64,000 bases of DNA from Octopus vulgaris (lineage: Eukaryota). The translations under genes and the position numbers were made by a program. Under the pieces are notes generated by a model. The model saw only the letters and a program-made list of their open reading frames with translations. It was not told where the DNA came from and did not search any database. This document shows positions 2,136-48,455 of the stretch, in pieces. Location of the stretch: positions 62,682,001 to 62,746,000 of the forward strand of contig OX597817.1 in the NCBI GenBank assembly GCA_951406725.2, written 5' to 3'. Numbering within the stretch: position 1 is the stretch's first letter; each line of letters opens with the position of its first letter.

Positions 2136-2305
2136 GCCACATTAAGGGACACAAACGCATTCGACATATTTCTTGAGAAGGGATGGTTTAAAGTTTATAG
2201 CTGAACATGACCAATTGAATAAAATAATATTTTAATTTTGTTTTGTTTCATTTTGTTTATTTTATTTGAAGTTGTATAAATTTCATTTCTGTAATCCCTT
2301 ATAAA

Positions 2306-2645
2306 ATGGCGATGCCACAAGAAAAGTATTTTATGTGCTGCAGTTTGAGAAATGCGAATCGATTGTGCAAATGCAACGTTAATTTCGCCGCTAATTCCAT
2401 AAAAAAACCACCTCGTCACTAGAAGATTTATAAATGGCATAAATATTTCACAGAAAAAGGTTGCATTTGTAAAGAAAAAAGCACCGATGCTCATGGTGTT
2501 CATGGTTCTCATGTTGACTGTATACTGCTATAAAATAAACTTAAAACCTTCTCCTGTCAAGAAATATATAAAATCTGTTTGTGTCTCTAACCATTTGTTT
2601 TAAAAATAAATTTAAAGTATGCTCTTTCTTTTTGAATAACCCCGT
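2306..2645 (+). mobile_element. Internally deleted Tc1-like (DUF4817-type N-terminal HTH) element
   Basis: Degenerate MAMPQEK..VLQFEKCESIVQMQR*FRR*FHKKPP..IYKWHKYFTEKGCICKEKS. Ends in a TIR-like ttttgaataaccccg followed by ta. Confidence 0.65.
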
Positions 2646-2889
2646 AAATATATATATATATACAAAATATGGGGGTTTAGTTCACAAGTGATCTAAATGA
2701 TTAGGTACGCTAAGTAAGTGGGGTAATGGATTACTAGGGCTCCAAGGTTATAACCGAGACGGTAGTTATGGAGCCTTTGCAGATTTTCCGATATAGCAGA
2801 TATATAATTGTTAAAGAGGACAATAAACGCTAAGTCAAGGCAAACATATCAAGTCATATACATTACTGTCATTGGAAAAAAATTCAAAT

Positions 2890-2943
2890 TCTTACAGCTG
2901 TTTCTGGGATATCCCAGAGTATGGGGTATTTCGTCATCAGAGA
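2890..2943 (-). ncRNA. Minimal type-I hammerhead ribozyme with degenerate stem II
   Basis: Reverse complement: tct CTGATGA c gaaatac-ccca tactc tggg-atatccc a GAAA cagctg TA aga. Confidence 0.65.
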
Positions 2944-3135
2944 CAAATATGGAAATGAGAAATTTATATCGTGACTTTTGAATATGGCCATTTGAATATG
3001 GCTAACCCCTAAGGGTGGATGCTACTGTATTTTGTAGCCCCAGGAAGATATCTCCTCCAGCTGGCTATAGACACACTATCTGTGCCCTATCAGTATGTGA
3101 AGGGAAGTCATCCTTCCCGTCTTCAACTTATGATA

Positions 3136-3180
3136 CACACGGACTCGAGTTTCAAGGTGTTTACCTTTCATCAGCGTGTG
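3136..3180 (-). ncRNA. Canonical minimal type-I hammerhead ribozyme
   Basis: Reverse complement: cacacg CTGATGA aaggt aaac acctt GAAA ctcgag TC cgtgtg. 6-bp stem I, 5-bp stem II, palindromic stem III, GUC cleavage triplet. Confidence 0.92.
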
Positions 3181-3247
3181 ACAATCATAGTTGTCGACGA
3201 GTAATAGTTGTGAAGGGAGCTGACTTCTCGTCGACAACTATGATTGT

Positions 3248-3292
3248 CACACGCTGATGAATGGTAAACACCTTGAAACTCGAGTCCGTGTG
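3248..3292 (+). ncRNA. Minimal type-I hammerhead ribozyme (mirror copy)
   Basis: cacacg CTGATGA atggt aaac acctt GAAA ctcgag TC cgtgtg. One stem II mismatch. Predicted cut after 3286. Confidence 0.88.
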
Positions 3293-3604
3293 TATCATAA
3301 GTTGAAGACGGGAAGGATGAATTCCCTTCACAAATACTGATAGGACACAGATAGTGTGTCTATAGCAAGCTGGAGGAGTTATCTTCCTGGGGCTACAAAC
3401 TACAGTAGCATCCACCCTTAGGGGTTAGCCATATTCAAATGGCAAATATGCGTCACGATGTGTTACCGCTACTGTTTATAACTCGCTCTGAGATTTATCA
3501 TTGAGAAATTTATAGATTAATGAAAAGACGACGTAGAGAACAGTAGTAAGGAAATAAGGAGAAGAAAAAAGAGAAGAAAAAAGAAGCATATATTTACGTT
3601 TTAG

Positions 3605-3662
<58 letters not shown>

Positions 3663-3699
3663 AATCGACCTGGCCTTCAGATGCTGTTACACATTGCTG

Positions 3700-3890
3700 G
3701 TCAAAATGCGCTTCCAATTTTGTCATAATTGCGCATTTCTCCATCACTCTGGAGCGTTCTTGAATTATCACATTTCGAATGTGCTTTCTTAGTGATATTT
3801 CTAGCATGGATCTAGTCACAGTCCTTCGCTTTGTAGCCAACAGATTTTCTGTCCTCTTCGTAACAGCCAGTTAGGACGGTGCTAAAACAA
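3700..3890 (-). mobile_element. RTE-clade LINE C-terminal fragment
   Basis: ..TVTRSMLEISLRKHIRNVIIQERSRV resembles the RTE ORF C-terminal MERSMLGISLRDHIRNE motif. Confidence 0.6.
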
Positions 3891-8498: not shown

Positions 8499-8584
8499 TT
8501 GGCTGATGAGTACTCAGCATCTTAAATCTGTTGTAATACTTACGACATTTAATAAAATGATGTAGTACGAAACGATCGTACCAA
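8499..8584 (+). ncRNA. Type-I hammerhead ribozyme with extended stem II
   Basis: ttgg CTGATGA gtact(ca)gcatc..gatgt agtac GAAA cgatcg TA ccaa. Core intact, palindromic stem III, GUA site, cut after 8580. Confidence 0.85.
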
Positions 8585-8725
8585 ATTACCGGAATCATTC
8601 TTGTTGCTTATTCTGATTATAATCACCCCACGGATTTTTATGGATAACACTATACAAGATTCTGGTGCATCTAAATTAAGTACCATATTCATTTGAATCT
8701 AAATTTTTGCTGAACATATATATAT

Positions 8726-8789
<64 letters not shown>

Positions 8790-8896
8790 CAGATACCAAT
8801 TATTAGATAAATCAATGTATTAGACGGTGTCCAATAAGTGTCATCAAATAAATGGAAGCGGTTTTGATGCTAAAATGGATTATTTATTTACTTTAA

Positions 8897-9010
8897 CCAG
8901 ACAGCTGTTTCTGTCGTAAAGACCATATTTCGGGTATGCAATTGAAGAATAGGTACTTCAACAAAAGTAATACACGTTATCATATTATATCATTTGGAAG
9001 TCATCAGTGG
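8897..9010 (-). ncRNA. Hammerhead-like motif with long stem II insertion
   Basis: Reverse complement: cca CTGATGA c..~85 nt..a GAAA cagctg TC tgg. The base of stem II is poorly paired. Confidence 0.55.
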
Positions 9011-9180
9011 ATAATAATTAAATATTTGAATATTTAAAAGTAGTTTTAAATATTAGTTTTCTTCTTTGTGATCATTTATGCTTACTGTTCGTTTTTCGAC
9101 ATCAGTGGCAGACGCCACTAGAAAAACTCATATATATTTGCAAAGCAGCCTTCACTTTCATCGCGACCTGGTGGTTACCG

Positions 9181-9219
9181 CCCGTTGACGAGGGACAACA
9201 ATCCCGAAACTAGTTCGAG
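9181..9219 (+). ncRNA. Minimal hammerhead variant (C3->U)
   Basis: cccg TTGACGA ggga caacaa tccc GAAA ctag TT cgag. Downstream 9310-9380 resembles 3380-3443, so it is a related pLTR family. Confidence 0.6.
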
Positions 9220-9893
9220 CGTATCACTCAGGCTTGCGAGGAAGGGATGGCCTCCCTTTGCAAATGCTCCAAGGACACTGATATTGTGTCTAAAGCCAGC
9301 TAGAGACGACGATCTCTTGGGGCTATAAAGCTACAGTAACACCCCCTCCCCAATGTGGTTAGCCATGATAAGATGGCTTCTATACTTTACATTATCGAGC
9401 GATTACTGTTTCAATCTCATTTTGAGATTTAATTATGCTATATTAATTTCGTTTTCCAAGTAATTTATATTCCTTTCGTTCGTATTATTATCTACTCATT
9501 ACTCACTCCCTGTATATCTAAGTAAATATTGCCCTCCATTCTCCCTTATTTGTTGGTAAAAAAAAAAGCACGTATATGTACATCTTGAAATACCCTATAA
9601 GAGGTTATATATTTTAAAAAAAACAATATCCTATTTAACATTTTAGTAATTGTGTGTCTATCATAACTCATACATTTTTAACCCTGTTTTTAGTTAGAAA
9701 CAATAATATATGAGGAATCGATAATTTTTCCTCTTCTTTATAATACCTTAAACGGAAGAGATATATTCACCTGGAAAAATATAATATATATATATATATA
9801 TTACATACACAAACACACACACACACATATATATACATATATATATAGGTATACATGGACATAAATATATATACATATACAAATAGATACATG

Positions 9894-22290: not shown

Positions 22291-22712
22291 TATATGTACA
22301 TACCTACATATATATGTATATAAACATGCATATATGGGCACAGGACATTAAAAAAACGTTGAACACAATGAGAAACGAAAACTTAAAACGAAAACATAGA
22401 AATGAACTTTTTTCGAACAATGAAAAACAAACAGAGAAACGAGACATGCAACATAAAGAATATTCCCTTTCTTCAGTTGTCCCTGTTGCCTTCGAGACAC
22501 GGAGTAGAAGAAACAGGGACAACTGAAGAAGGATAATACTCTTTATGTTGTATGTCTCGTTTCTCTGTTTGTTTTTTTCATTGTTCGCAAAAAAGTTCGT
22601 TTCCATGTTTTTGTTTTTATGTTTTCGTTTCTCATTGTGTTCAACGTTTTCTTTTATTCCTGTACGCATATATGCACGTATATATACATATATATGTAGG
22701 TGTGTACATATA
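22291..22712. repeat. Long inverted repeat (arms ~22291-22487 and 22512-22712, 24-nt spacer)
   Basis: Arms are reverse complements with a few mismatches. A third single copy lies at ~32620-32810. Confidence 0.9.
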
Positions 22713-26114: not shown

Positions 26115-26979
26115 ATCTTATAATTAAGGGCTAAAGAAGGTTATTCTAAAGCCAATACACTGATTTATCCACTTATAATCCACTTGTTACAAGAAAATTG
26201 AACTGAAAGCGGGCAACTAACCTTTAGAAAATTTAAATTCCGAAATTGATTCAATATAGAGATAACGAAATTTAAATTTTCTAAAGGTTAGTTGCCCGCT
26301 TTCAGTTCAATTTTCTTGTAACAAGTGGATTATAAGTGGATAAATCAGTGTATTGGCTTTAGAATAACCTTCTTTAGCCCTTATTTATAAGATGTTTATA
26401 CTTCAACCGTAAAGGTTTTTTTAATATACTGCCACGCTTTTTGATGGAATCCTTTTCTGTAGAGAAAGGGACTTCATCCTATATTGTTAGTAGTAAACTC
26501 ACTGCTTGTTACAAGGGGACCGGTAACCATTACAATATGTAACGGCGATAGGTCAACACGTTGTTCTGAGACTGACCAAGGAATTTTTATTTTTAGATAT
26601 AAATGATGTACTTAAGTGTTGTTGTGTTTTTAGCTTCTGCTTTTTCCATGATCACATGTGAGTATTTTATTTATATTCCCTCGTAAACTCTACTGAAGAA
26701 GAATGTATCCTTTATAGGGATTAATCCCGAAATTGATTCAATATAGAGATAACGAAATTTAAATTTTCTAAAGGTTAGTTGCCCGCTTTCAGTTCAATTT
26801 TCCTGTAACAAGTGGATTATAAGTGGATAAATCAGTGTATTGGCTTTAGAATAACCTTCTTTAGCCCTTATTTATAAGATGTCTATACTTCAACCGTAAA
26901 AGTTTTTTTAATATACTGCTACGCTTTTTGATGGAATCCTTTTCTGTAGAGAAAGGGACTTCATCCTATATTGTTGGTA

Positions 26980-26980
<1 letters not shown>
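26115..26980 (+). mobile_element. Non-coding Penelope/retrozyme-like insertion: inverted arm plus 487-nt-period tandem repeat, within (TA)n
   Basis: 26115-26239 is the reverse complement of 26269-26393. 26239-26493 is directly repeated at 26726-26980. Contains an HHR. Confidence 0.85.
26688..26748 (+). ncRNA. Type-I hammerhead ribozyme
   Basis: ctcta CTGAAGA a gaatgtatcctttatagggattaatccc GAAA ttgattcaa TA tagag. 5-bp stem I, near-palindromic stem III, imperfect stem II base. Confidence 0.75.
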
Positions 26981-32597: not shown

Positions 32598-34776
32598 TAT
32601 TACATACATATATGTACATACCTACATATGTATATATACATATACAAAAAAAAAAAACGTTGAACACAATGAGAAACGAAAACATAAAAACGAAAACTTA
32701 GAAACGAACTTTTTTTCTAACAACGAAAGAACAGAGAAACGAGACATACAACATAAAGAATATTCTCCTTCTTCGGTTGTCCCTGCTTCCTCTACTCCAC
32801 GTTTAAAATATACATACATACATACATACATACATACACACACACAGACAGAAAGACAGACAGAAAGACAGACTGACTGACTGACAGTGAATTCCCTGCT
32901 TAGTGCTGATCTGTTATTGTGCTCTTCATTCCCGGATGTAAAGTTTTCCAGTAGGACCGCTACAAACTTATATTTTTATATTAACTCAGAAAATAATTCA
33001 TACTTTGCATACTTCCAAATGCACGCAAATATTACCCGCAATCTGTTACTGACTATGAGTGGAATAGAACCTGTAACGCGATGTACTGACATTTCGTCTA
33101 AAGTGATTAAGAAGAGTCATACTGGATATAAAACTGCCAGCGTCGAAACAGTTTGAAGCAAGTGACACGTATGTTTTATGTGTTATTCATTAAGGAATGA
33201 TCTTTTTTAATGAATTTCTAAGGAATATTACAGAAATTAGAGTTAAGTTTAACGTGAATTATCCTGCTAATGACTACAGGAACAAAGGAAGGTGTTCTGG
33301 TCATAGCATTTCGTTATATGAATTACTTCAGACCTGAACACGCAAGAAAGCAAATAAAGAATTATAATAAACAATCAGTGAGCGACAACTGGCAACAGCT
33401 TGAACCTTATCTATCCTTAGTGTTTTTTAATCGAATTTAAATTGACTAAGGTTATATTCCTTCATTAAACTTGATTATTTTAACTTGTTTCATTAGCCCA
33501 TAACAATATTGGATCTTAAATCATTCAATTTATTTTCTAATTAGATTAAAGCATTTTATGTGGCGTTATCTATGATATTACGCTTTTAGCGGTGTAACGT
33601 CCTCATGTCTCTGAATGTTTTCTGTCCCTTGGTGATGTGATTAAATTTCATTTGTTGTTCGTATTACTGCTCATCGAATTTTATAGCCCTATGCTGTTAT
33701 AATTCACCCGATTAACGAGACAACTTTTAGGGACGTATCACGGAGATCAGCCAATGTATTAAGGTAGTTCGTTATTTGCAGGTTGTTGGAGCAAAATTTG
33801 ACGATTATTTATGTCTCTTTCTTTCTGGAACAGTTTGATGAACTAGTGAATAGTCAACAGCGTTGTAGAGCATAAAAATTAAAGTTGTAGCCGAGAAGCC
33901 ATCTGAATATTACCTGCGTAATTATGATTGAAGCCAGGTCTCAAAATGCCGATATCATGGCTACTGGTATGCTATGCAAAGCTCATCCATAGGTATTGGC
34001 CACCTGATGTCATCATACACTATACATTCTCCGCTTACTAGATTCCATTGTATAAGTAGAGCTTATATAATCTTACACATTGGCTGGATGATAGTGATTC
34101 CATGCACAGCCTATTATCATCTTACCAATATAGTACGCGCTTAAAAAAACTATATATGAGTTAAAATTAAAGTTTAAATTTAAAATGACAGCAGGGTATG
34201 TACATGAGTAACCGACCAACAGCGGGTTAGGTACTGACACGCTTAATTGTGTGTTATATTTACCTTATTCTTGGTATTGTATTGTTTTTCTTAGTTACTT
34301 CCTATTTGTATCCACAGCTTCGCAACATAATCGGTTTTTTGCCGTTCCCTTACAATGTATTTTAGCTACGACTGCTATCAACATGCTCTAGTTTATCTTA
34401 AGAGCAAAACATTACTAAATGCAACGAGAAACTGTATTACAGAAATCCATTGTATAGTTTCCCACCCGCAAAGATGTGTTGAAACGATCGTTGTGATAAA
34501 TAAAGGTTCCAATATATTTTATCTTCCGTATCCATTGTCTCTATTTAATTCTTTTATTCTTATATTCTTTTACTTGTTTCAGTCATTTGACTGCAGCCAT
34601 GCTGGAGCACCGCATTTTGTCAAACAAATCGACCCCGGGACTTATTTTTTTGTAAGCCTAGCGCTTATTCTATCGGTCTCTTTTGCCGAACTGCTACGTT
34701 ACGGAGACGTAAACACACCAACATGGGTTGCCAAGCGATGGTGGTGGGGTGCAAACACAGACACACACACACATAC

Positions 34777-34812
<36 letters not shown>

Positions 34813-35096
34813 GACGGTTTCTTTCAGTTTCTGTCTACCAAATCCATTCACAAGGATTTTGGTCTGCCAGAGGCTATAGTAGAAGACACTTGCTCAACGC
34901 GGCCCGCAGTGGGACGGAACCAGGAACCATGTGGTTGGAAAGCAAGCTTCCTGCCACACAGCCACTCCTACACCTATATATATATATTTTATATATATAC
35001 ATATATATATATATATATACATATATAAGAATTTTTTTGCGTAACGAGATAAAAAAACCAAGGCTGTATAGATATTAGAGCGTTTATAGATAGAAG

Positions 35097-35148
35097 GTCT
35101 TACAGCTTTTTCTAGGATATTAATTAATAATATCCCTTCATCAGAGAC
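35097..35148 (-). ncRNA. Type-I hammerhead ribozyme
   Basis: Reverse complement: gtct CTGATGA a gggatatt attaatt aatatcct a GAAA aagctg TA agac. Related to 2890-2943. Confidence 0.75.
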
Positions 35149-35861
35149 GCTGTGAAAAATTTAGTCATAGTTAAGACATGAGTTACAATCATTCATATAA
35201 TCTGAATGTCAGCCAATAATTTTTAGTTTTATCAGTAGTTATGGGTGTGTAATTGAGTTGTCAGGAGCTGATTGCTTTTGATTCTAATTTTATGGCGTTT
35301 TTATTTCAAACGTTTAACACGGCAAGATTTTTCAAATTATAGAATAATGAACACACAGAGAAATAGATACTCGTATATAGATTCATTCATACGTGGTCTT
35401 GTGTAGGTGTGCATGTTCGCGTGCTCGTGCGTGTGGTTGTTTGTTGTGGAAGACAGAAAGTCTGTGATTGCATATATGTGTTTCTTTGTATATTTGCGAG
35501 TGTTTAACATCGCATTGTATGAATAATATATCTATGCATAAATGCATAGATACATACGGGGCATGATACCATAGATAAGTACATACGTACCCGATATTTC
35601 TCCCTTTTCTCTTTTAAGTCACACGTTTTCTAGAAAGAACAAATAAACACACACATAAACATACACACAAACCAACACACAACACACACACATACACACA
35701 CACACACATATAAATAGTTAGAAAGGAAGAAAAAAAGAATCAAAGATAGAAAGAAAGGGTAATATAAAGAAATAGGTGTAAACGTTGATATGTATATGTT
35801 ACCGATTGTGTCTGTGTATATACATATGTGTGTGTAAGTATATATACATATATATGTATAG

Positions 35862-36759: not shown

Positions 36760-37362
36760 TCTGATCTACAATAATGCGCTGATTGAAATCGAGGATGCTC
36801 TGCTCAAAATGGGTGGGGCGGTGTTGAAAACATTCGGTTTGCCATCCTCATTGCGACAGGACGTTAACACACTCCCACCAAAGTTACTTCTGGAGTTATA
36901 TGACGCTGATGGCCTTGCGGAGTACTTGAGACCTGATCAGAGTCTAGTGTACGAAACTGTCGTCAGTGTCGTTGAAAAACAAGCGGGTGGCATTTTTCCC
37001 TCGATGCTGCTAGAGGTACCGGCAAATCCTTAGTAACACAATTAATGCTTGCTAATATTCATCGCGAGAAACAAATTGCGCTAGCCGTTGCTTCCTCGGG
37101 AATCAGGGGGTAGGACGGCGCACTCGGTATTCAAGCTGCCTTTACATTTGGTGAGAGCCGAGGTAACTACTTGGAACAATGGCAAAAATTCAGAGGAAGC
37201 TGAAGTTCTTAGACAATGCCGTCTCATTGTATGGGAGGAACGCACAATGACAAAAAAGGGTGCCCTTGAGGCACTAGACCGGTCACTGAAAGGTATCAGG
37301 GATTCTACAGCTTCTATGGGTGGTGTAACTCTATTGCTTTCAGGAGATTGCTTTAACTCCTG
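36760..37362 (+). pseudogene. Helitron PIF1-family helicase fragment
   Basis: Frameshifted LDAARGTGKS (Walker A), AVASSG, GGRTAHSVFKLPL, CRLIVWEERTM, ALEALDRSLKGIR, MGGVTLLLSGD. Confidence 0.88.
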
Positions 37363-38574: not shown

Positions 38575-39634
38575 GGCGTTAGCAATCGACTTTAGTGCCT
38601 TGGAAGAGGATCTCAAGCATAGTCGGAGTATCCTTACGCACAGTTTATAACATAAAAAAGAGAAAGGACATGAGCAACAGCATTCAGAGGAAGTCTGGCA
38701 GCAGTGGAGCCAACAAGAAACGAAATCAAGACTTCAACACCCTCAAGTCCAAAATTTCAACAGATACAACCACAACCATGAGGAAGCTGGCTTCTGAATT
38801 TGAAGCGGACCCCAAGACCATAAGAACAGCTGTGAATGATGACTACTCCAGGACACCAGGACACCGGCTGATAGAGGCAATGAAAGCCTGGAGACTGGAG
38901 AGATGCAAAAAGGTTCTCATATACTTAAAGAAGAACAGTTTCACTGAAAGTTTTCTGACGAAAAGATCTTCACAGTGGATGCTGTTCTGAACCACAGAAA
39001 TGATCAGTACATTGCGGAGTTAACAGCAGACGTCAGGAGCACCTTCAGAACAAAACTGGTCATGGATTTTGGTTTTGTGACCTCTGGCGGAAGAAAGATG
39101 CCCATCTGCTTATACAAGCCCGGAGAAAGAGTGGGTGCTGACGCCTACTACAAGACGCTGAGGTACCATGTCTTGCCGTGGCTCCAGACCGACTACCTAG
39201 AGGTCAACTATGTGTGGACCGAGGCTGGTACTTCCAGCCATATTGCCAAGAAGGTTAAGAATTTCTGCAAATCCAACTTTTCTGCTTTCTGGTCCGCGGA
39301 CTTCTGGCTTTCTTCCAGCCCGGATCTCAAGCCTCCGGACTATTCCGTGTGAGGCATTTTGGAGCATGCCACAACAAAATCTGACATTCCAACATCAACT
39401 CTCTGCAGGTTATCATCAATGAGGTGTGGGCCAGGATGTCCAGTGACTTTGTGGTGAAGAGTTGTGCAAGGTTCTGTGGAGGGTGTAATTGCAAACAATG
39501 GAAGCCACATAGATTACATTATTTATTTAGTAATTATATGCGAATGTTAACATAGTTATAAATTACTAAGCACGTTGAACAATAAGAGATTTCCAAGTGT
39601 TACAGCAATTTTGAATGTTTTCTTTCCCCACCCC

Positions 39635-40829: not shown

Positions 40830-43800
40830 TTTTTTTAAGGATTGCGGGTATTCTGGGTCACCACCGTTTTATTTTATTACACTTTATCTAAACCTCTCCT
40901 GATATGTGACATTTCGTGGATGAGGGAGTTTGATGCTGCTGCCCTCATCTGTGTTGCTTGTCATCCAGAAATTTTGACAAACAAAGATCTTAGTTTTGTT
41001 TTGAATAAACCTACATCCATGCCATGCAGGACTCAGACTTTGAAGGTTTGTGGATCTTTGAAGCTCAAGCTGTTGCAGTATCTGGTCCTGTATCCTGATG
41101 GAAATGTTGGGACATTTGGTATCATGCAGTGGCGACCCATCCCGCTCTTTGTATAAGTAACAATACCAAAGTTTGGAACAAGTTCTTCTGGGATTTTCCA
41201 AATGTATATTACAGTATATTTTAACTGCCTATATCCCAGTAGCTGTTTGGTGACCACAGTTGGGAGTAGTACTCGAGATGGATGAGAACGACAGTCCTGC
41301 AGAGGACCATCATGGTTTCCTTTTCTCGTGTTTTAAAGTTCGAAGGATGCTCCCGGCCACGCGTCTGCAACTTATTAAAGTGCACTTGGAGAAATGCATT
41401 ATTACTCATGTCGATGCCCAGGTCACAGACTAATTTCGCTTCAGGTATAGGAATCTTTCTTGGTCCAGTGTATCCTATTTACTTTTCATTGCGCTTCCTA
41501 TGTTAGTAGTGCAGGGCTTGGAATTAATTAGCATTAAGCTGCATGTCATTTTCCTCAGCCCACCTATATATTGCGTCCAACTCACGATGTGAGGATCTGT
41601 ATCCTCTGAGAGACTTTTGTATCGTCTGCATGGCTAGCAAGGTTAGCTACTTGAGCAGCTGAGGGCATGTCAGAGAGGGCCACTATGAATAGCAGTGGCC
41701 CCAGGACAATGCTCTGTGGAACACCACTCATTATTTTCTTGGAGGTGACCCCATTGACCACCACTACCTGACTTCTCTCTTTTAGAAAGTCACGTAGCCA
41801 TTCGCCAAATTTTCCAGATATGTCAAGATTTCGGAGCTTCTGACAAATCATACCATGGTCTATTTGGTCAAAAGCTTTGCAAAGTCGAGGTATATCACTT
41901 CCACATTTGAGTTTTTGAGCAGCTGATTTAGCACCCAATCGTAATGCTGCAAGAGCTATGTCAGACAGTTTCTACTTGAAATGCTTGGTGTCCGTCAACA
42001 CGTTATTCTCTTCAAGGAATGCAATAAATTTCCTTCGGACTATTCATTCTATGATTTTGCTGATGTGTGAGATCAGAGAGATAGATTTTAGCATCTACTC
42101 TGCTTCCTCCTTTATGGATAGGACATATCGTTCCCTCCTATAGTTTGTTCTGGAGCTCACCATTTGCGAGGAAGCTCTAAAAAAAGTAGCTGCAATGGTT
42201 TTGCAAGGACTCGTTTGCATGATTGAGTAAAATTGCTGGGAATCCATCAGAGCCAGCAGCTGAGTTTGCATCTATATAATCTTTTGCAAGCATTACATCC
42301 TTTTCTTCGATGTTGGTGTAACCAATTCTTATTGCCTTCCGTTCAGCTTTTGTAGCAATAAAGAATTCTACAGGTTTGCTAATTAGCATGTGCCGTAGGG
42401 ATGACGTGAAGACAATTTAGAACTGTTCATTCAGTGTTTCACTTATCCTCATTAGGTTTCCCGTGAAGGAGCCATCTTTTTGGAGGAGTGGCCCTACCTT
42501 GCAATGCACAGATGCAGTCTCCTTGGCGTACCTAAAGAAGCCATTAGGATCTGATTTTATATTTCATATGACACAGGCTTCTCTCTCTGATCTTTCTTTC
42601 TCATGGAAGTGCTTCAGTTATTTCTCAATCTCCAACAGTGCTGTTTCCAGGTAGGGTTTCCCACTGCCGTTGCGTTCTTTTTTTTAGGCGGTTTGCAATC
42701 TTTGTACACTGTCTCATAAGAACTTTCCTCTCCGTATTTTTATGTGCCTTGGCCCTTGTCTCTGGGACAAACTCTAGCATTATGGCTTGCATTACAGACA
42801 TGAAAGTTTTCAATGTCATGTCTATGTCAGGTGTAGAGAGACATTGGGACTAGTCCTGTTTGGTGATCTCTCTCTCCATTAGTTTCGGGTCTGCTTTGTA
42901 GTAGTTCAGACTGGTTAGGTTGTGGGTGATTCTCATAGGCTGCATATATGTGGGTTGATCCATACATGGTCAGCTCTATTATGTTGTGATCCGAGATTAG
43001 CATCGGTGTCACTTTCACATTATAGATGAGATCCACATTTTTGTGAAGCACAGATCAAGTACATTGTTTGCTCTGATTGGTTGGAGTATTATTTGCTCCA
43101 TACATAAATTGTTGGTGTGGTTGAGTAGGGATTAGACCTGACTTCATTGTGTCCTTCCTCAGAGGAAAAGACCTTCGGGCCATTTCATATTGGATAGGTT
43201 GAAGTCTCACATGAGAAGTACACTGATGTGCTTTTCTATTGTGGTTAAGACCTCTTCTATTCTTGCAAGGCAGTCTATGAATACGCCCATGGGATTTGGG
43301 GCATCTGGTGAGCGATATTTTTACATATAATTATGTCAAGTTGTCTTATATGTACAATTAGTATGTCACACACTGAGTTTGAGTGGAACAAAAGGATCTG
43401 GTGTGTGGGATCTTCACGGTGGTACATGGAACTCTACCATGGCCCCTGTCTTTTCTATAGCTTCACAATATCACGTACTTTGGTATGTGTATTTCTGCAT
43501 CTGCGATGTCGGATGTTAAGTGTGTTTTAGTGAGTACTATTCATAAGGCTTGATTACATGTCACTAGATCTCTAAGGAAGGTAATTTTAGTTCTGTTACT
43601 GAGTTGTAACAGTTCTCCTCTTACATTTGCTAATATATTGGTGTGACTTCTGTGCTGGCGCAAGCGATGGCCACCCTAGATCCATTGGTTGTTGCAGTCT
43701 TGCGTATTGGTGGGGATGTGAGGAAGCCAATACTGTGGAATTGATGAAGCCAAGTTAATTGTTGCACAATCTTTTGAGCCATGCATAAAAAGAGACTTTT

Positions 43801-45721: not shown

Positions 45722-45786
<65 letters not shown>

Positions 45787-46125
45787 ACAATTGAGGGTAA
45801 AATTAATTAATTAATCAATTTCACCAAGTGTTCAGTATGTAAAAGGACCATTTAAGGCGAATTCAAAATATTACATTATATAATTAGGGCTTAGTAAAAT
45901 AAATTACTTTGCCACATACTGAACTTAGTAGAAATAGCAGCCAAAAATTTTCTTAGCATTTCTACTACTTAAAGAAAATTTCTCTCAGATAATGTTTACT
46001 CCAGACAGTTCACGAAGGTTTGGGGGTAAATACAGAAAAATATCGGAGTGGTTCATCTGAAGCGACAACTTCGCTGATAGGTAAAGTTCCTTCTTTTTAG
46101 TGTTTCCAAATCCAAATTAAGAAAT

Positions 46126-46188
46126 TTTGAGCTGACGAAAGAAATGCTAATTTTATTTGGCTAATCTTGAAACGTTAACGTACTCAAA
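46126..46188 (+). ncRNA. Canonical type-I hammerhead ribozyme, tandem copy 1
   Basis: tttgag CTGACGA aaga aatgctaattttatttggctaa tctt GAAA cgttaacg TA ctcaaa. Predicted cut after 46182. Confidence 0.92.
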
Positions 46189-46688
46189 CGATCTATGTAC
46201 TTGTGATATTTTTCTGTATTTACCCCCAAACCTTCGTGAGCTGTCTGGAGTAAACATTATCTGAGAGAAATTTTCTTTAAGTAGTAGAAATGCTAAGAAA
46301 ATTTTTTGGCTGCTATTTCTACTAAGTTCAGTATGTGGCAAAGTAATTTATTTTACTAAGCCCTAATTATATAATGTAATATTTTGAATTCGCCTTAAAT
46401 GGTCCTTTTACATACTGAACACTTGGTGAAATTGATTAATTAATTAATTTTACCCTCAATTGTTGATATTATAATTCATTTCTCTCGGTCATACTGCCTC
46501 GGTTCTCGCGGTTAAAATATAATGTTTGCTGGATAGACCACGTGGGTGGAATGGGGAGTGCAGAATTTTACGCCTGCGCATTTTGAATTTGTTGACACTG
46601 TTTAGTCGGAGTGGTTCATCTGAAGCGACAACTTCGCTGATAGGTAAAGTTCCTTCTTTTTAGTGTTTCCAAATCCAAATTAAGAAAT

Positions 46689-46751
46689 TTTGAGCTGACG
46701 AAAGAAATGCTGATTTTATTTGGCTAATCTTGAAACGTTAACGTACTCAAA
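46689..46751 (+). ncRNA. Canonical type-I hammerhead ribozyme, tandem copy 2
   Basis: Same as copy 1 with one loop substitution. Predicted cut after 46745. Confidence 0.92.
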
Positions 46752-46936
46752 CGATCTATGTACTTGTGATATTTTTCTGTATTTACCCCCAAACCTTCGT
46801 GAGCTGTCTGGAGTAAACATTATCTGAGAGAAATTTTCTTTAAGTAGTAGAAATGCTAAGAAAATTTTTTGGCTGCTATTTCTACTAAGTTCAGTATGTG
46901 GCAAAGTAATTTATTTTACTAAGCCCTAATTATATA

Positions 46937-46985
<49 letters not shown>

Positions 46986-47346: not shown

Positions 47347-47714
47347 ATACAGAGTGAAATAAATGAAAATATTTATACATACCCACAGAAAAGCACACGC
47401 AAAATGAGAGTACATACAAACATTCACAAATATATAAGCATCGAATTTCGCAGTCCACCTCAACACATGTGTACTTCGTCAGAATACTACAGAAGTAAAT
47501 AAACTGACCCGAAGTGAATTAATTTATGAATTTTTAGTCAGTCTGCTTTCCCGCTTTCAACCTATGTATATAAGTGGAGTCAATATCTGCAACACACACA
47601 CACAAACACAATTCAATTAGATGTTAAATTGGCTTCATTTTTTATTAAATTAGATATTCCAGTTTCTTACTTTCCTTTGAATAACCTTGGTTTGTACATA
47701 ACTCTATTGTTTTA

Positions 47715-47781
<67 letters not shown>

Positions 47782-47784
<3 letters not shown>

Positions 47785-48455
47785 GGGTTGGACAAAATAA
47801 TGGAAACATTAAAAATTCAATCGAATTTATTTTAATATGGGTAGGACACCCTTTGACGGTAATTACAGCTTGAATTCTATGAGGTATGGACTCATACAAA
47901 GTTTTAATTATTTCCAAAGCAATATTTGTCCATTCTTCAGCTAAAACAGTCTCCAGTTCTTGTAGTGATGATGGTGGTGGATATCGACTCCTTACTTGTT
48001 TTTCTAAAATGCACCATAAATGTTCAATAATATTGAGATCTGGGGACTGTGGTGGCCAGATAAGATGTTCAACTTTACTAGAATTTTACTAGCGCCATTC
48101 AGTAACAATTTTAGCTGTGTGAATTGGTGCATTATCATCCTGAAAGATTGCGTTTCACTCCGGAAACAGTTCCGCGACCATAAGATAAATCTGATCAGAT
48201 GAAATGCTTAAATAGTCCTGACTATTAATTTTGCCATGAAGGGAAACCATTGGGCCGGCGGATTTCCAAGATATAGCCCTCACCCACCCCAGATCATCAC
48301 AGATCCTCCTCCATGTTTAACAGTCGGAAAAAGGCAGTCTGGGTCAAATGCTTCTTTTGGCTGTCTCCACACGTATACTCGACCGGTGGTCGGAAATATG
48401 GTAAAGGATGACACGTCCGAAAAAATAACATTCTTCCACTGCTCTAGAGACCAAT
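47782..48455 (-). mobile_element. Tc1 transposon 3' half
   Basis: TIR caggggttggacaaaataatggaaaca after TA. Minus strand reads WPPQSPDLNIIEHLWC and LYESIPHRIQAVITVKGCPT. Truncated by a family B SINE. Confidence 0.88.

Follow-up and report, generated by a model that had tools for sequence, protein, structure and literature searches.

Positions 2969-3501 of the window (the whole 64,000-nt stretch of DNA that we analysed) are one copy of a high-copy hammerhead ribozyme (HHR) repeat, here called family A, and this copy very probably arrived in a single insertion by the reverse transcriptase and endonuclease of a Penelope-like element (PLE). The layout of the copy, its target-site duplication, the two ends of the family, the nesting within an older HHR repeat (family B) and the high copy number are directly demonstrated. 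Because we did not find an ORF of the family, its membership in the PLEs rests on structure. The window as a whole is AT-rich, dense in microsatellites and scattered with transposon fragments, and it looks like non-coding animal DNA. The relevant features are these:

1063-1722, 38583-39349, 47648-48085, 41585-41971 and 37085-37360: fragments of mariner/Tc1 transposase, non-LTR-type reverse transcriptase and PIF1 helicase, from Pfam
2648-2955, minus strand: family B, an older HHR repeat and the insertion target, with its 3' end in a TA tract near 2648-2661
2890-2943, minus strand: third HHR, decayed, family B, with helix III palindrome ACAGCUGU and predicted cut after 2893
2956-2968, plus strand: left copy of the target-site duplication, TGAGAAATTTATA, 13 bp, the longest direct repeat shared by both flanks; family boundaries in sequencing contigs coincide with this position
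2969-3201, minus strand: left arm, an inverted, 5'-truncated copy of family A without tail, identical to 3227-3458 at 221 of 236 columns
3136-3180, minus strand: left-arm type I HHR, with predicted cut after 3142 and helix III palindrome ACUCGAGU
3202-3207, no strand: junction filler, 6 nt; upstream of 3208, other copies of the family no longer match the window
3208-3458, plus strand: right arm, a direct, 5'-truncated copy of family A
3248-3292, plus strand: right-arm type I HHR, in which a U-U mismatch at 3262 interrupts helix II; predicted cut after 3286
3459-3501, plus strand: tail, 43 nt, on the right arm only; loose ends of the family lie at 3456-3459 and 3494-3503, and the copy near 9100 ends here too
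3502-3514, plus strand: right copy of the target-site duplication, 13 bp (TGAGAAATTTATA)
3515-3580 (end approximate), minus strand: continuation of family B past the insertion, from joints of 2930-2955 to 3515-3556 in contigs of other copies
9133-9432, plus strand: diverged single-arm copy of family A, with the tail and a decayed HHR at about 9190-9225, without inverted partner

A first-pass annotation had described a palindrome at 2987-3443, with arms of about 215 bp around a 25-nt spacer, and both self-BLAST and an alignment of the arms bear this out. The stretch matches its own reverse complement, the arms (2987-3201 and 3227-3443) have 209 identical columns out of 217, the others being 6 mismatches and a single 2-nt indel, and the centre is 3202-3226. 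The insertion is larger than this palindrome: the homology of the arms extends outward to 2969 and 3458, and the 13-bp duplication bounds 533 bp. Although any common 13-mer turned up between such flanks in 60 of 3000 random tries, this one sits at boundaries that were found independently. At the centre, an 8-nt direct repeat (ATAGTTGT) occurs at 3187-3194 and at 3204-3211, beside the filler, and the head-to-head join was likely made via slippage or microhomology.

Contigs from four sequencing runs show what the rest of the family looks like. In each of the four, between 5,750 and 7,673 contigs match 2300-3600, mostly at 90-99% identity, so this region consists of high-copy repeats, although summed contig depth is not copy number. 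Behind 3503, other copies leave the window sequence and continue in flanks of mixed sequence (30 contigs in one run, 33 and 35 in two others), and family A contigs also depart behind 3456-3459 in four runs (among the 18 of 52 loose ends listed). Because the loose ends cluster at these two places, copies of family A naturally stop at either of two 3' ends, which are separated by about 43 nt. Both are present in this insertion: the left arm terminates at the position that corresponds to 3458, and the right arm does so at 3501-3503. At the other side, each of the 4 runs has 8-11 contigs that extend past 3208 in the upstream direction, and the sequence that they have in common there resembles the upstream part of the diverged copy at 9133-9432. 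So 19 of the 25 spacer bases (3208-3226) are ordinary family A, and only 3202-3207 is filler. We also note a contig in run X3 in which 3204, at the inner end of the left arm, is joined to the opposite strand at 3441. This would amount to a head-to-tail arrangement of family A elsewhere, with the caveat that mapping is ambiguous inside the palindrome.

The target is also a repeat. Loose ends of family B lie before 2648 (35 contigs in run X1) and behind 2955 (39, 39 and 50 contigs in X2-X4). The consensus behind 2955 resembles 2955-2968 and then 3515 onward, and copies of family B without family A span from the left flank to the right flank. There are several joints between 2930-2955 and 3515-3556, with sides of 28-41 letters and the letters between mostly unread. 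Because contigs of family B bridge 2955 to 3515 onward, family A was inserted in family B, about 13 nt upstream of that family's HHR. And because contigs of family B cover the third HHR, this motif belongs to the target element rather than to the palindrome.

We considered whether the palindrome could be an assembly or library fold-back artefact. No contig lies over the centre or the left junction among the listed pieces (32 of 1,214), and none of these matches bridges the window copy's own junctions. Also, 2928-2979 is without cover at 98% identity in X3 and X4, but such a hole proves nothing. A fold-back artefact would give identical arms and no duplication. Instead, 8 of 217 columns are different between the arms, and each arm has letters that are in the minority within the family (3030 on the left; 3321 and 3367 on the right). 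The 13-bp duplication makes the target element whole again, and the arm ends fit two natural ends of the family. Because of these differences, minority letters and duplication, we view an artefact as extremely unlikely.

Similarly, we see hardly any chance that the arms come from two independent insertions of family A or from a later local inverted duplication. A single target-site duplication encloses both arms, and the arms have a family-minority letter in common (3381). They are also 96% alike, as compared to 90-95% between most family contigs and the window. What two events might explain is that the outer 18 bp of the left arm, which include a short local duplication, are more diverged than the rest.

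Long inverted arms, a target-site duplication, a high copy number and the lack of an ORF would also be expected of a foldback DNA transposon or MITE, whose long terminal inverted repeats would then hold HHR motifs by chance. We think that this is highly improbable, as the termini are asymmetric, with the 43-nt tail at one end, and are thus not exact inverted repeats. Furthermore, a copy with a single arm is known (9133-9432), and other copies run upstream past the centre and do not fold back. Contig cover is far thinner at the centre than at the outer ends, but this is only suggestive since depth is not copy number. The single-arm copy lies in a stretch (9120-9480) that the first-pass annotation had proposed to check for the family, and by alignment it is a genuine, diverged relative, with matches at 219 of 326 columns. 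Head-to-tail tandem monomers, which are a feature of retrozymes, are absent at both of the window's copies of family A.

By analogy with described insertions, an inverted 5'-truncated copy, a one-sided tail, a duplication and nesting together are the published signature of Penelope-like retroelements. In published accounts, PLE insertions have a 5'-truncated copy in inverted orientation and, optionally, a tail of 30-40 bp on one side (Craig et al., PMC8557442), and head-to-head is given as the commonest arrangement (Arkhipova et al., PMC3846280). The tail has been shown to be the distance between two internal start sites of the reverse transcriptase, and the targets are AT-rich (Frangieh et al., PMC11167929). 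At 2969-3501, the inverted 5'-truncated copy is joined to the 5' end of the direct copy, there is a short target-site duplication as in EN+ Penelope-like insertions, and an HHR lies near the 3' end, as in a pLTR, its cut site being 172 nt away from one of the two 3' ends and 215 nt away from the other. Against a PLE, both the tail (43 nt) and the duplication (13 bp) slightly exceed the lengths in the literature, which are 30-40 nt and 8-10 bp, respectively.

If a PLE was responsible, then its endonuclease would have made a staggered cut in the AT-rich DNA of family B, and cDNA synthesis would have begun at the two internal start sites by which the tail is defined. Having passed the HHR cut site, each cDNA would have broken off prematurely, at a point about 60-80 nt upstream of it, and microhomology would have joined the two head to head, with the 6-nt filler. 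Both arms would then contain an HHR only because both cDNAs ran past it. Family A may be either the pLTR of a protein-coding PLE or a non-coding passenger of the retrozyme type.

The three HHR motifs listed above were found with an HHR descriptor. The window contains 6 motifs with a strict core, as compared to 0 in all 30 local shuffles, among which there was 1 relaxed match. Rfam reports no family of any kind at the gathering score across the window, and no HHR at E<=5 within 2600-3700. At the palindrome centre, mir-181 and other generic hairpins matched (Rfam, E<=5), but these matches were below threshold and we rejected them.

The arms had been thought to carry perfect mirror-image hammerheads. 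Both motifs are present, but only the left one has an intact 5-bp helix II. Similarly, the elements of a type I HHR (the core CUGANGA, GAAA and UH plus three helices) are intact in the left arm, while the right arm has one helix II mismatch. In the left-arm fold, helix I has 6 bp and a 10-bp extension past an internal loop, and helix II has 5 bp (z = -3.46); by itself, this HHR is predicted to form helix I with a probability of 0.85-0.88. In the arm HHRs, helix III consists of just 2 bp, capped by a palindromic loop. The left arm is predicted to fold as a canonical type I HHR, as expected for retrozymes, and it appears to have the canonical metazoan build, with self-cleavage as a prediction only. 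The third HHR, which had been placed just outside the palindrome, does exist as a motif, but it is decayed and it is part of a different, older repeat. It lacks the helices I and II of a type I HHR: its helix I has 3 bp, and no HHR fold is predicted. Position 2889 is a G in most of the family B depth, which would give a fourth helix I pair that is absent from the window's copy. An HHR akin to this motif lies at about 35090-35150 on the minus strand. There, helix I has 4 bp, helix II is clean and the helix III palindrome has a single change.

What would RNA from the palindrome do? All of our folds are predicted at equilibrium and for RNA alone, and protein assistance has been found for the HHR of a PLE (PMC11167929). 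The first-pass annotation had pointed out that a read-through RNA from either strand would contain an HHR as well as its antisense, and this is correct: a hairpin of about 230 bp is predicted, with perfect runs of 35, 58 and 43 bp (-420 kcal/mol for the plus strand). Perfect double-stranded runs of these lengths would suit ADAR or Dicer, and it is plausible that the hairpin is a substrate for either if it is transcribed. It had also been suggested that the ribozyme fold would compete with the hairpin, but the predicted folds give the ribozyme no real chance. The probabilities of helix I and helix II are 0.000 for the whole palindrome and for all six prefixes that end 0-30 nt past the HHR, and forcing helix I costs 77.6 kcal/mol on the plus strand and 74.8 kcal/mol on the minus strand, while in isolated arms helix I has a probability of 0.82-0.88. 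Because the HHRs point outwards, the antisense arm is transcribed first on both strands. Also, the arm HHRs are never both sense on one RNA and therefore cannot dimerise in cis.

A further suggestion was that two cuts on the minus strand, about 250 nt apart, could release a small RNA. The spacing holds, as we measure 249 nt between 2893 and 3142. Nevertheless, release of this RNA is unlikely because the hairpin sequesters the left HHR, the third HHR has decayed, and the helix III palindromes of families A and B do not pair with each other (-1.0 kcal/mol, as compared to -10.7 kcal/mol for like with like).

More generally, one could imagine that the locus is a functional RNA device that has been kept because it alternates between ribozyme and hairpin folds or because it releases the 249-nt RNA. 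An intact left HHR that folds by itself, with helix I at 0.85-0.88, the spacing of the minus-strand cuts and the 96% similarity of the arms would fit this idea. But the antisense arm precedes the HHR on both strands, with helix I at 0.000 and a penalty of 75-78 kcal/mol, and both the right and the third HHR bear helix-breaking changes. The third HHR is the target element's, there is no pairing between its helix III and the helix III of family A, and there are three such fold-backs in 64 kb. So we consider a functional device very unlikely.

A variant that we rate as improbable is that a promoter at the junction, active outwards on both sides, gives two arm RNAs that are free of antisense. These RNAs would pair via the ACUCGAGU helix III, which is identical in both, and cleave each other, while the read-through hairpin would be edited or diced to yield small RNAs that act against all of the high-copy family. 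If outward transcription were true, then fold-backs would be self-made silencing loci for families of the Penelope type, and they would provide a natural test of how the inverted arm and the tail arise. Two presumed RNA runs, X10 and X16, have 24 and 22 contigs that match, and the 16 pieces listed are 35-71 nt, with none over the centre; but these contigs are uninformative about expression, as the family has many copies and a contig reveals neither the strand nor the ends of an RNA. Returning to insertion by a PLE, read-through RNA would form the hairpin of about 230 bp that silences both HHRs, and we predict that the locus is passive debris, or a source of double-stranded RNA at most.

As for coding capacity, we found no ORF for a reverse transcriptase or a GIY-YIG endonuclease beside family A among 134 ORFs of the window that we compared to Pfam (133 filtered ORFs of at least 62 amino acids plus one). 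The Pfam matches in the window are to mariner/Tc1, to RVT_1 (once, at 41585-41971) and to PIF1 (fragments), with nothing PLE-like beside the element. A frame of 21 codons starts with an ATG at 3439 and stays open until the tail ends, and in the copy near 9100 the frame from the aligned ATG has 19 codons, which may be chance. The 21-codon frame resembles the start of an ORF inside the pLTRs of A. vaga, but it is too short to weigh.

Searches beyond the window did not find relatives. A pattern specific to the family had 0 matches in a metagenome scan, and a looser pattern matched 46 metagenome loci, none of which is homologous to family A or family B (blastn, E<=0.01). At 18 of these loci, 85 ORFs lie near HHRs; 46 of them were compared to Pfam, and none had a PLE domain. 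The scan did yield an unrelated HHR repeat at 18 metagenome loci (L005, L006, L008, L009, L016-L018, L022, L025, L027, L030, L032, L036, L037, L041 and L043-L045). These have the same helix III palindrome and at least about 640 nt of common sequence downstream, and L008, L041 and L045 have inverted partial copies nearby. Another locus, L001 (1-1275), has a perfect direct repeat in which identical HHRs recur once, at a spacing of 662 nt, with 52% GC and no long ORF. It resembles a circular RNA or a retrozyme monomer that was assembled almost twice.

The window contains two further, unrelated HHR fold-backs with an inverted-plus-tandem layout (26117-26980 and 45781-46937). In both of these, the inverted arm stops before the HHR, so whether a palindrome ends up with two HHRs is a matter of where truncation fell. 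Each of the three fold-backs has one short and one long end, and the inverted arm is the short one in family A and at 26 kb and the long one at 46 kb. The fold-back at 26117-26980 has tandem copies with a period of 487 bp and an HHR at about 26690-26750 on the plus strand, with the core CUGAAGA and a near-palindromic helix III; TA tracts lie on either side of the fold-back. The one at 45781-46937 is a young HHR repeat, with an inverted arm at 45781-46044 and direct copies with a period of 563 bp that are identical at 338 of 341 positions. Its HHRs (46126-46188 and 46689-46751, plus strand) have a 10-nt helix III palindrome, and TA tracts lie on either side of the repeat. As the two HHRs are on the same strand, they could dimerise, and they are stronger candidates for cleavage than the HHRs of the palindrome.

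Two more sites deserve mention. First, HHRs at 8499-8584 (plus strand) and about 8897-9011 (minus strand) have a very long helix II (59 and about 90 nt, respectively), and both HHRs point to one TA tract at about 8715-8790; the relative of family A at 9133-9432 lies just beyond this pair. We considered whether the HHR at about 8897-9011 is another family B, which would imply that family A targets family B, but the alignment (which has no significance value) is mostly AT-rich noise and does not support this. Second, 22399-22603 is an imperfect palindrome of 205 bp (85%) in which our scan found no HHR core, and part of it recurs at 32709-32798.

By itself, the insertion at 2969-3501 matters little, as it is a clean instance of a known insertion pattern. 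Nevertheless, the duplication, both cDNA starts, the filler and the interrupted target are all readable, which makes it a useful worked case. In the cited portions of the literature, self-priming was proposed for the origin of the inverted arm (PMC3846280), and the later steps were left unvalidated (PMC11167929). Sets of copies like this one could test models of how the inverted arm forms, a step that those portions leave unexplained. And if such fold-backs are transcribed, then they would be a large pool of double-stranded RNA for editing and small-RNA silencing in the host genome.

In the literature that we covered (mostly open-access main texts), we found nothing about family A or about PLE hammerheads in cephalopods. 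The closest likeness is to Pen2a_Av from Adineta vaga, which is nested in Pen3 and has an inverted pLTR, a 31-bp tail and a 9-bp target-site duplication (Arkhipova et al., PMC3846280; the scheme is in Fig. 2 of PMC8557442). Both insertions are head to head, with a tail, a duplication, nesting and an HHR near the 3' end. Unlike Pen2a_Av, our insertion has no ORF between the arms, which leaves a stub of the size of a pLTR, and both its tail (43 nt) and its duplication (13 bp) are longer.

Pairs of HHRs on opposite strands, about 100-700 bp apart, were reported in 2014 (Cervera and De la Pena, PMC4209133). As in the truncated PLE HHRs of Schistosoma mansoni from that paper, the palindrome has two type I HHRs on opposite strands within this range of distances, and helix III is short and palindromic, which is described there as needing a dimer. 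In contrast to the minimal form in S. mansoni, the HHR here has the canonical metazoan build (a 6-bp helix I with an extension, a 5-bp helix II and a 2-bp helix III with a palindromic loop), and there is an A-U pair where that paper describes a conserved G10.1-C11.1 pair.

Finally, family A resembles the non-LTR retrozymes of metazoans (PMC7229834) in that it is high-copy, non-coding and a few hundred bases long, with a canonical type I HHR, but its copies are inverted instead of being tandem monomers. Retrozymes have been proposed to be mobilised by PLE enzymes (PMC7229834; bioRxiv 10.64898/2026.07.22.740005), and the latter, a 2026 preprint, derives non-LTR retrozymes from the pLTRs of PLEs. 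Going by these sources, both opposite-strand pairs of HHRs and the fold-back layout of the insertion are already known.
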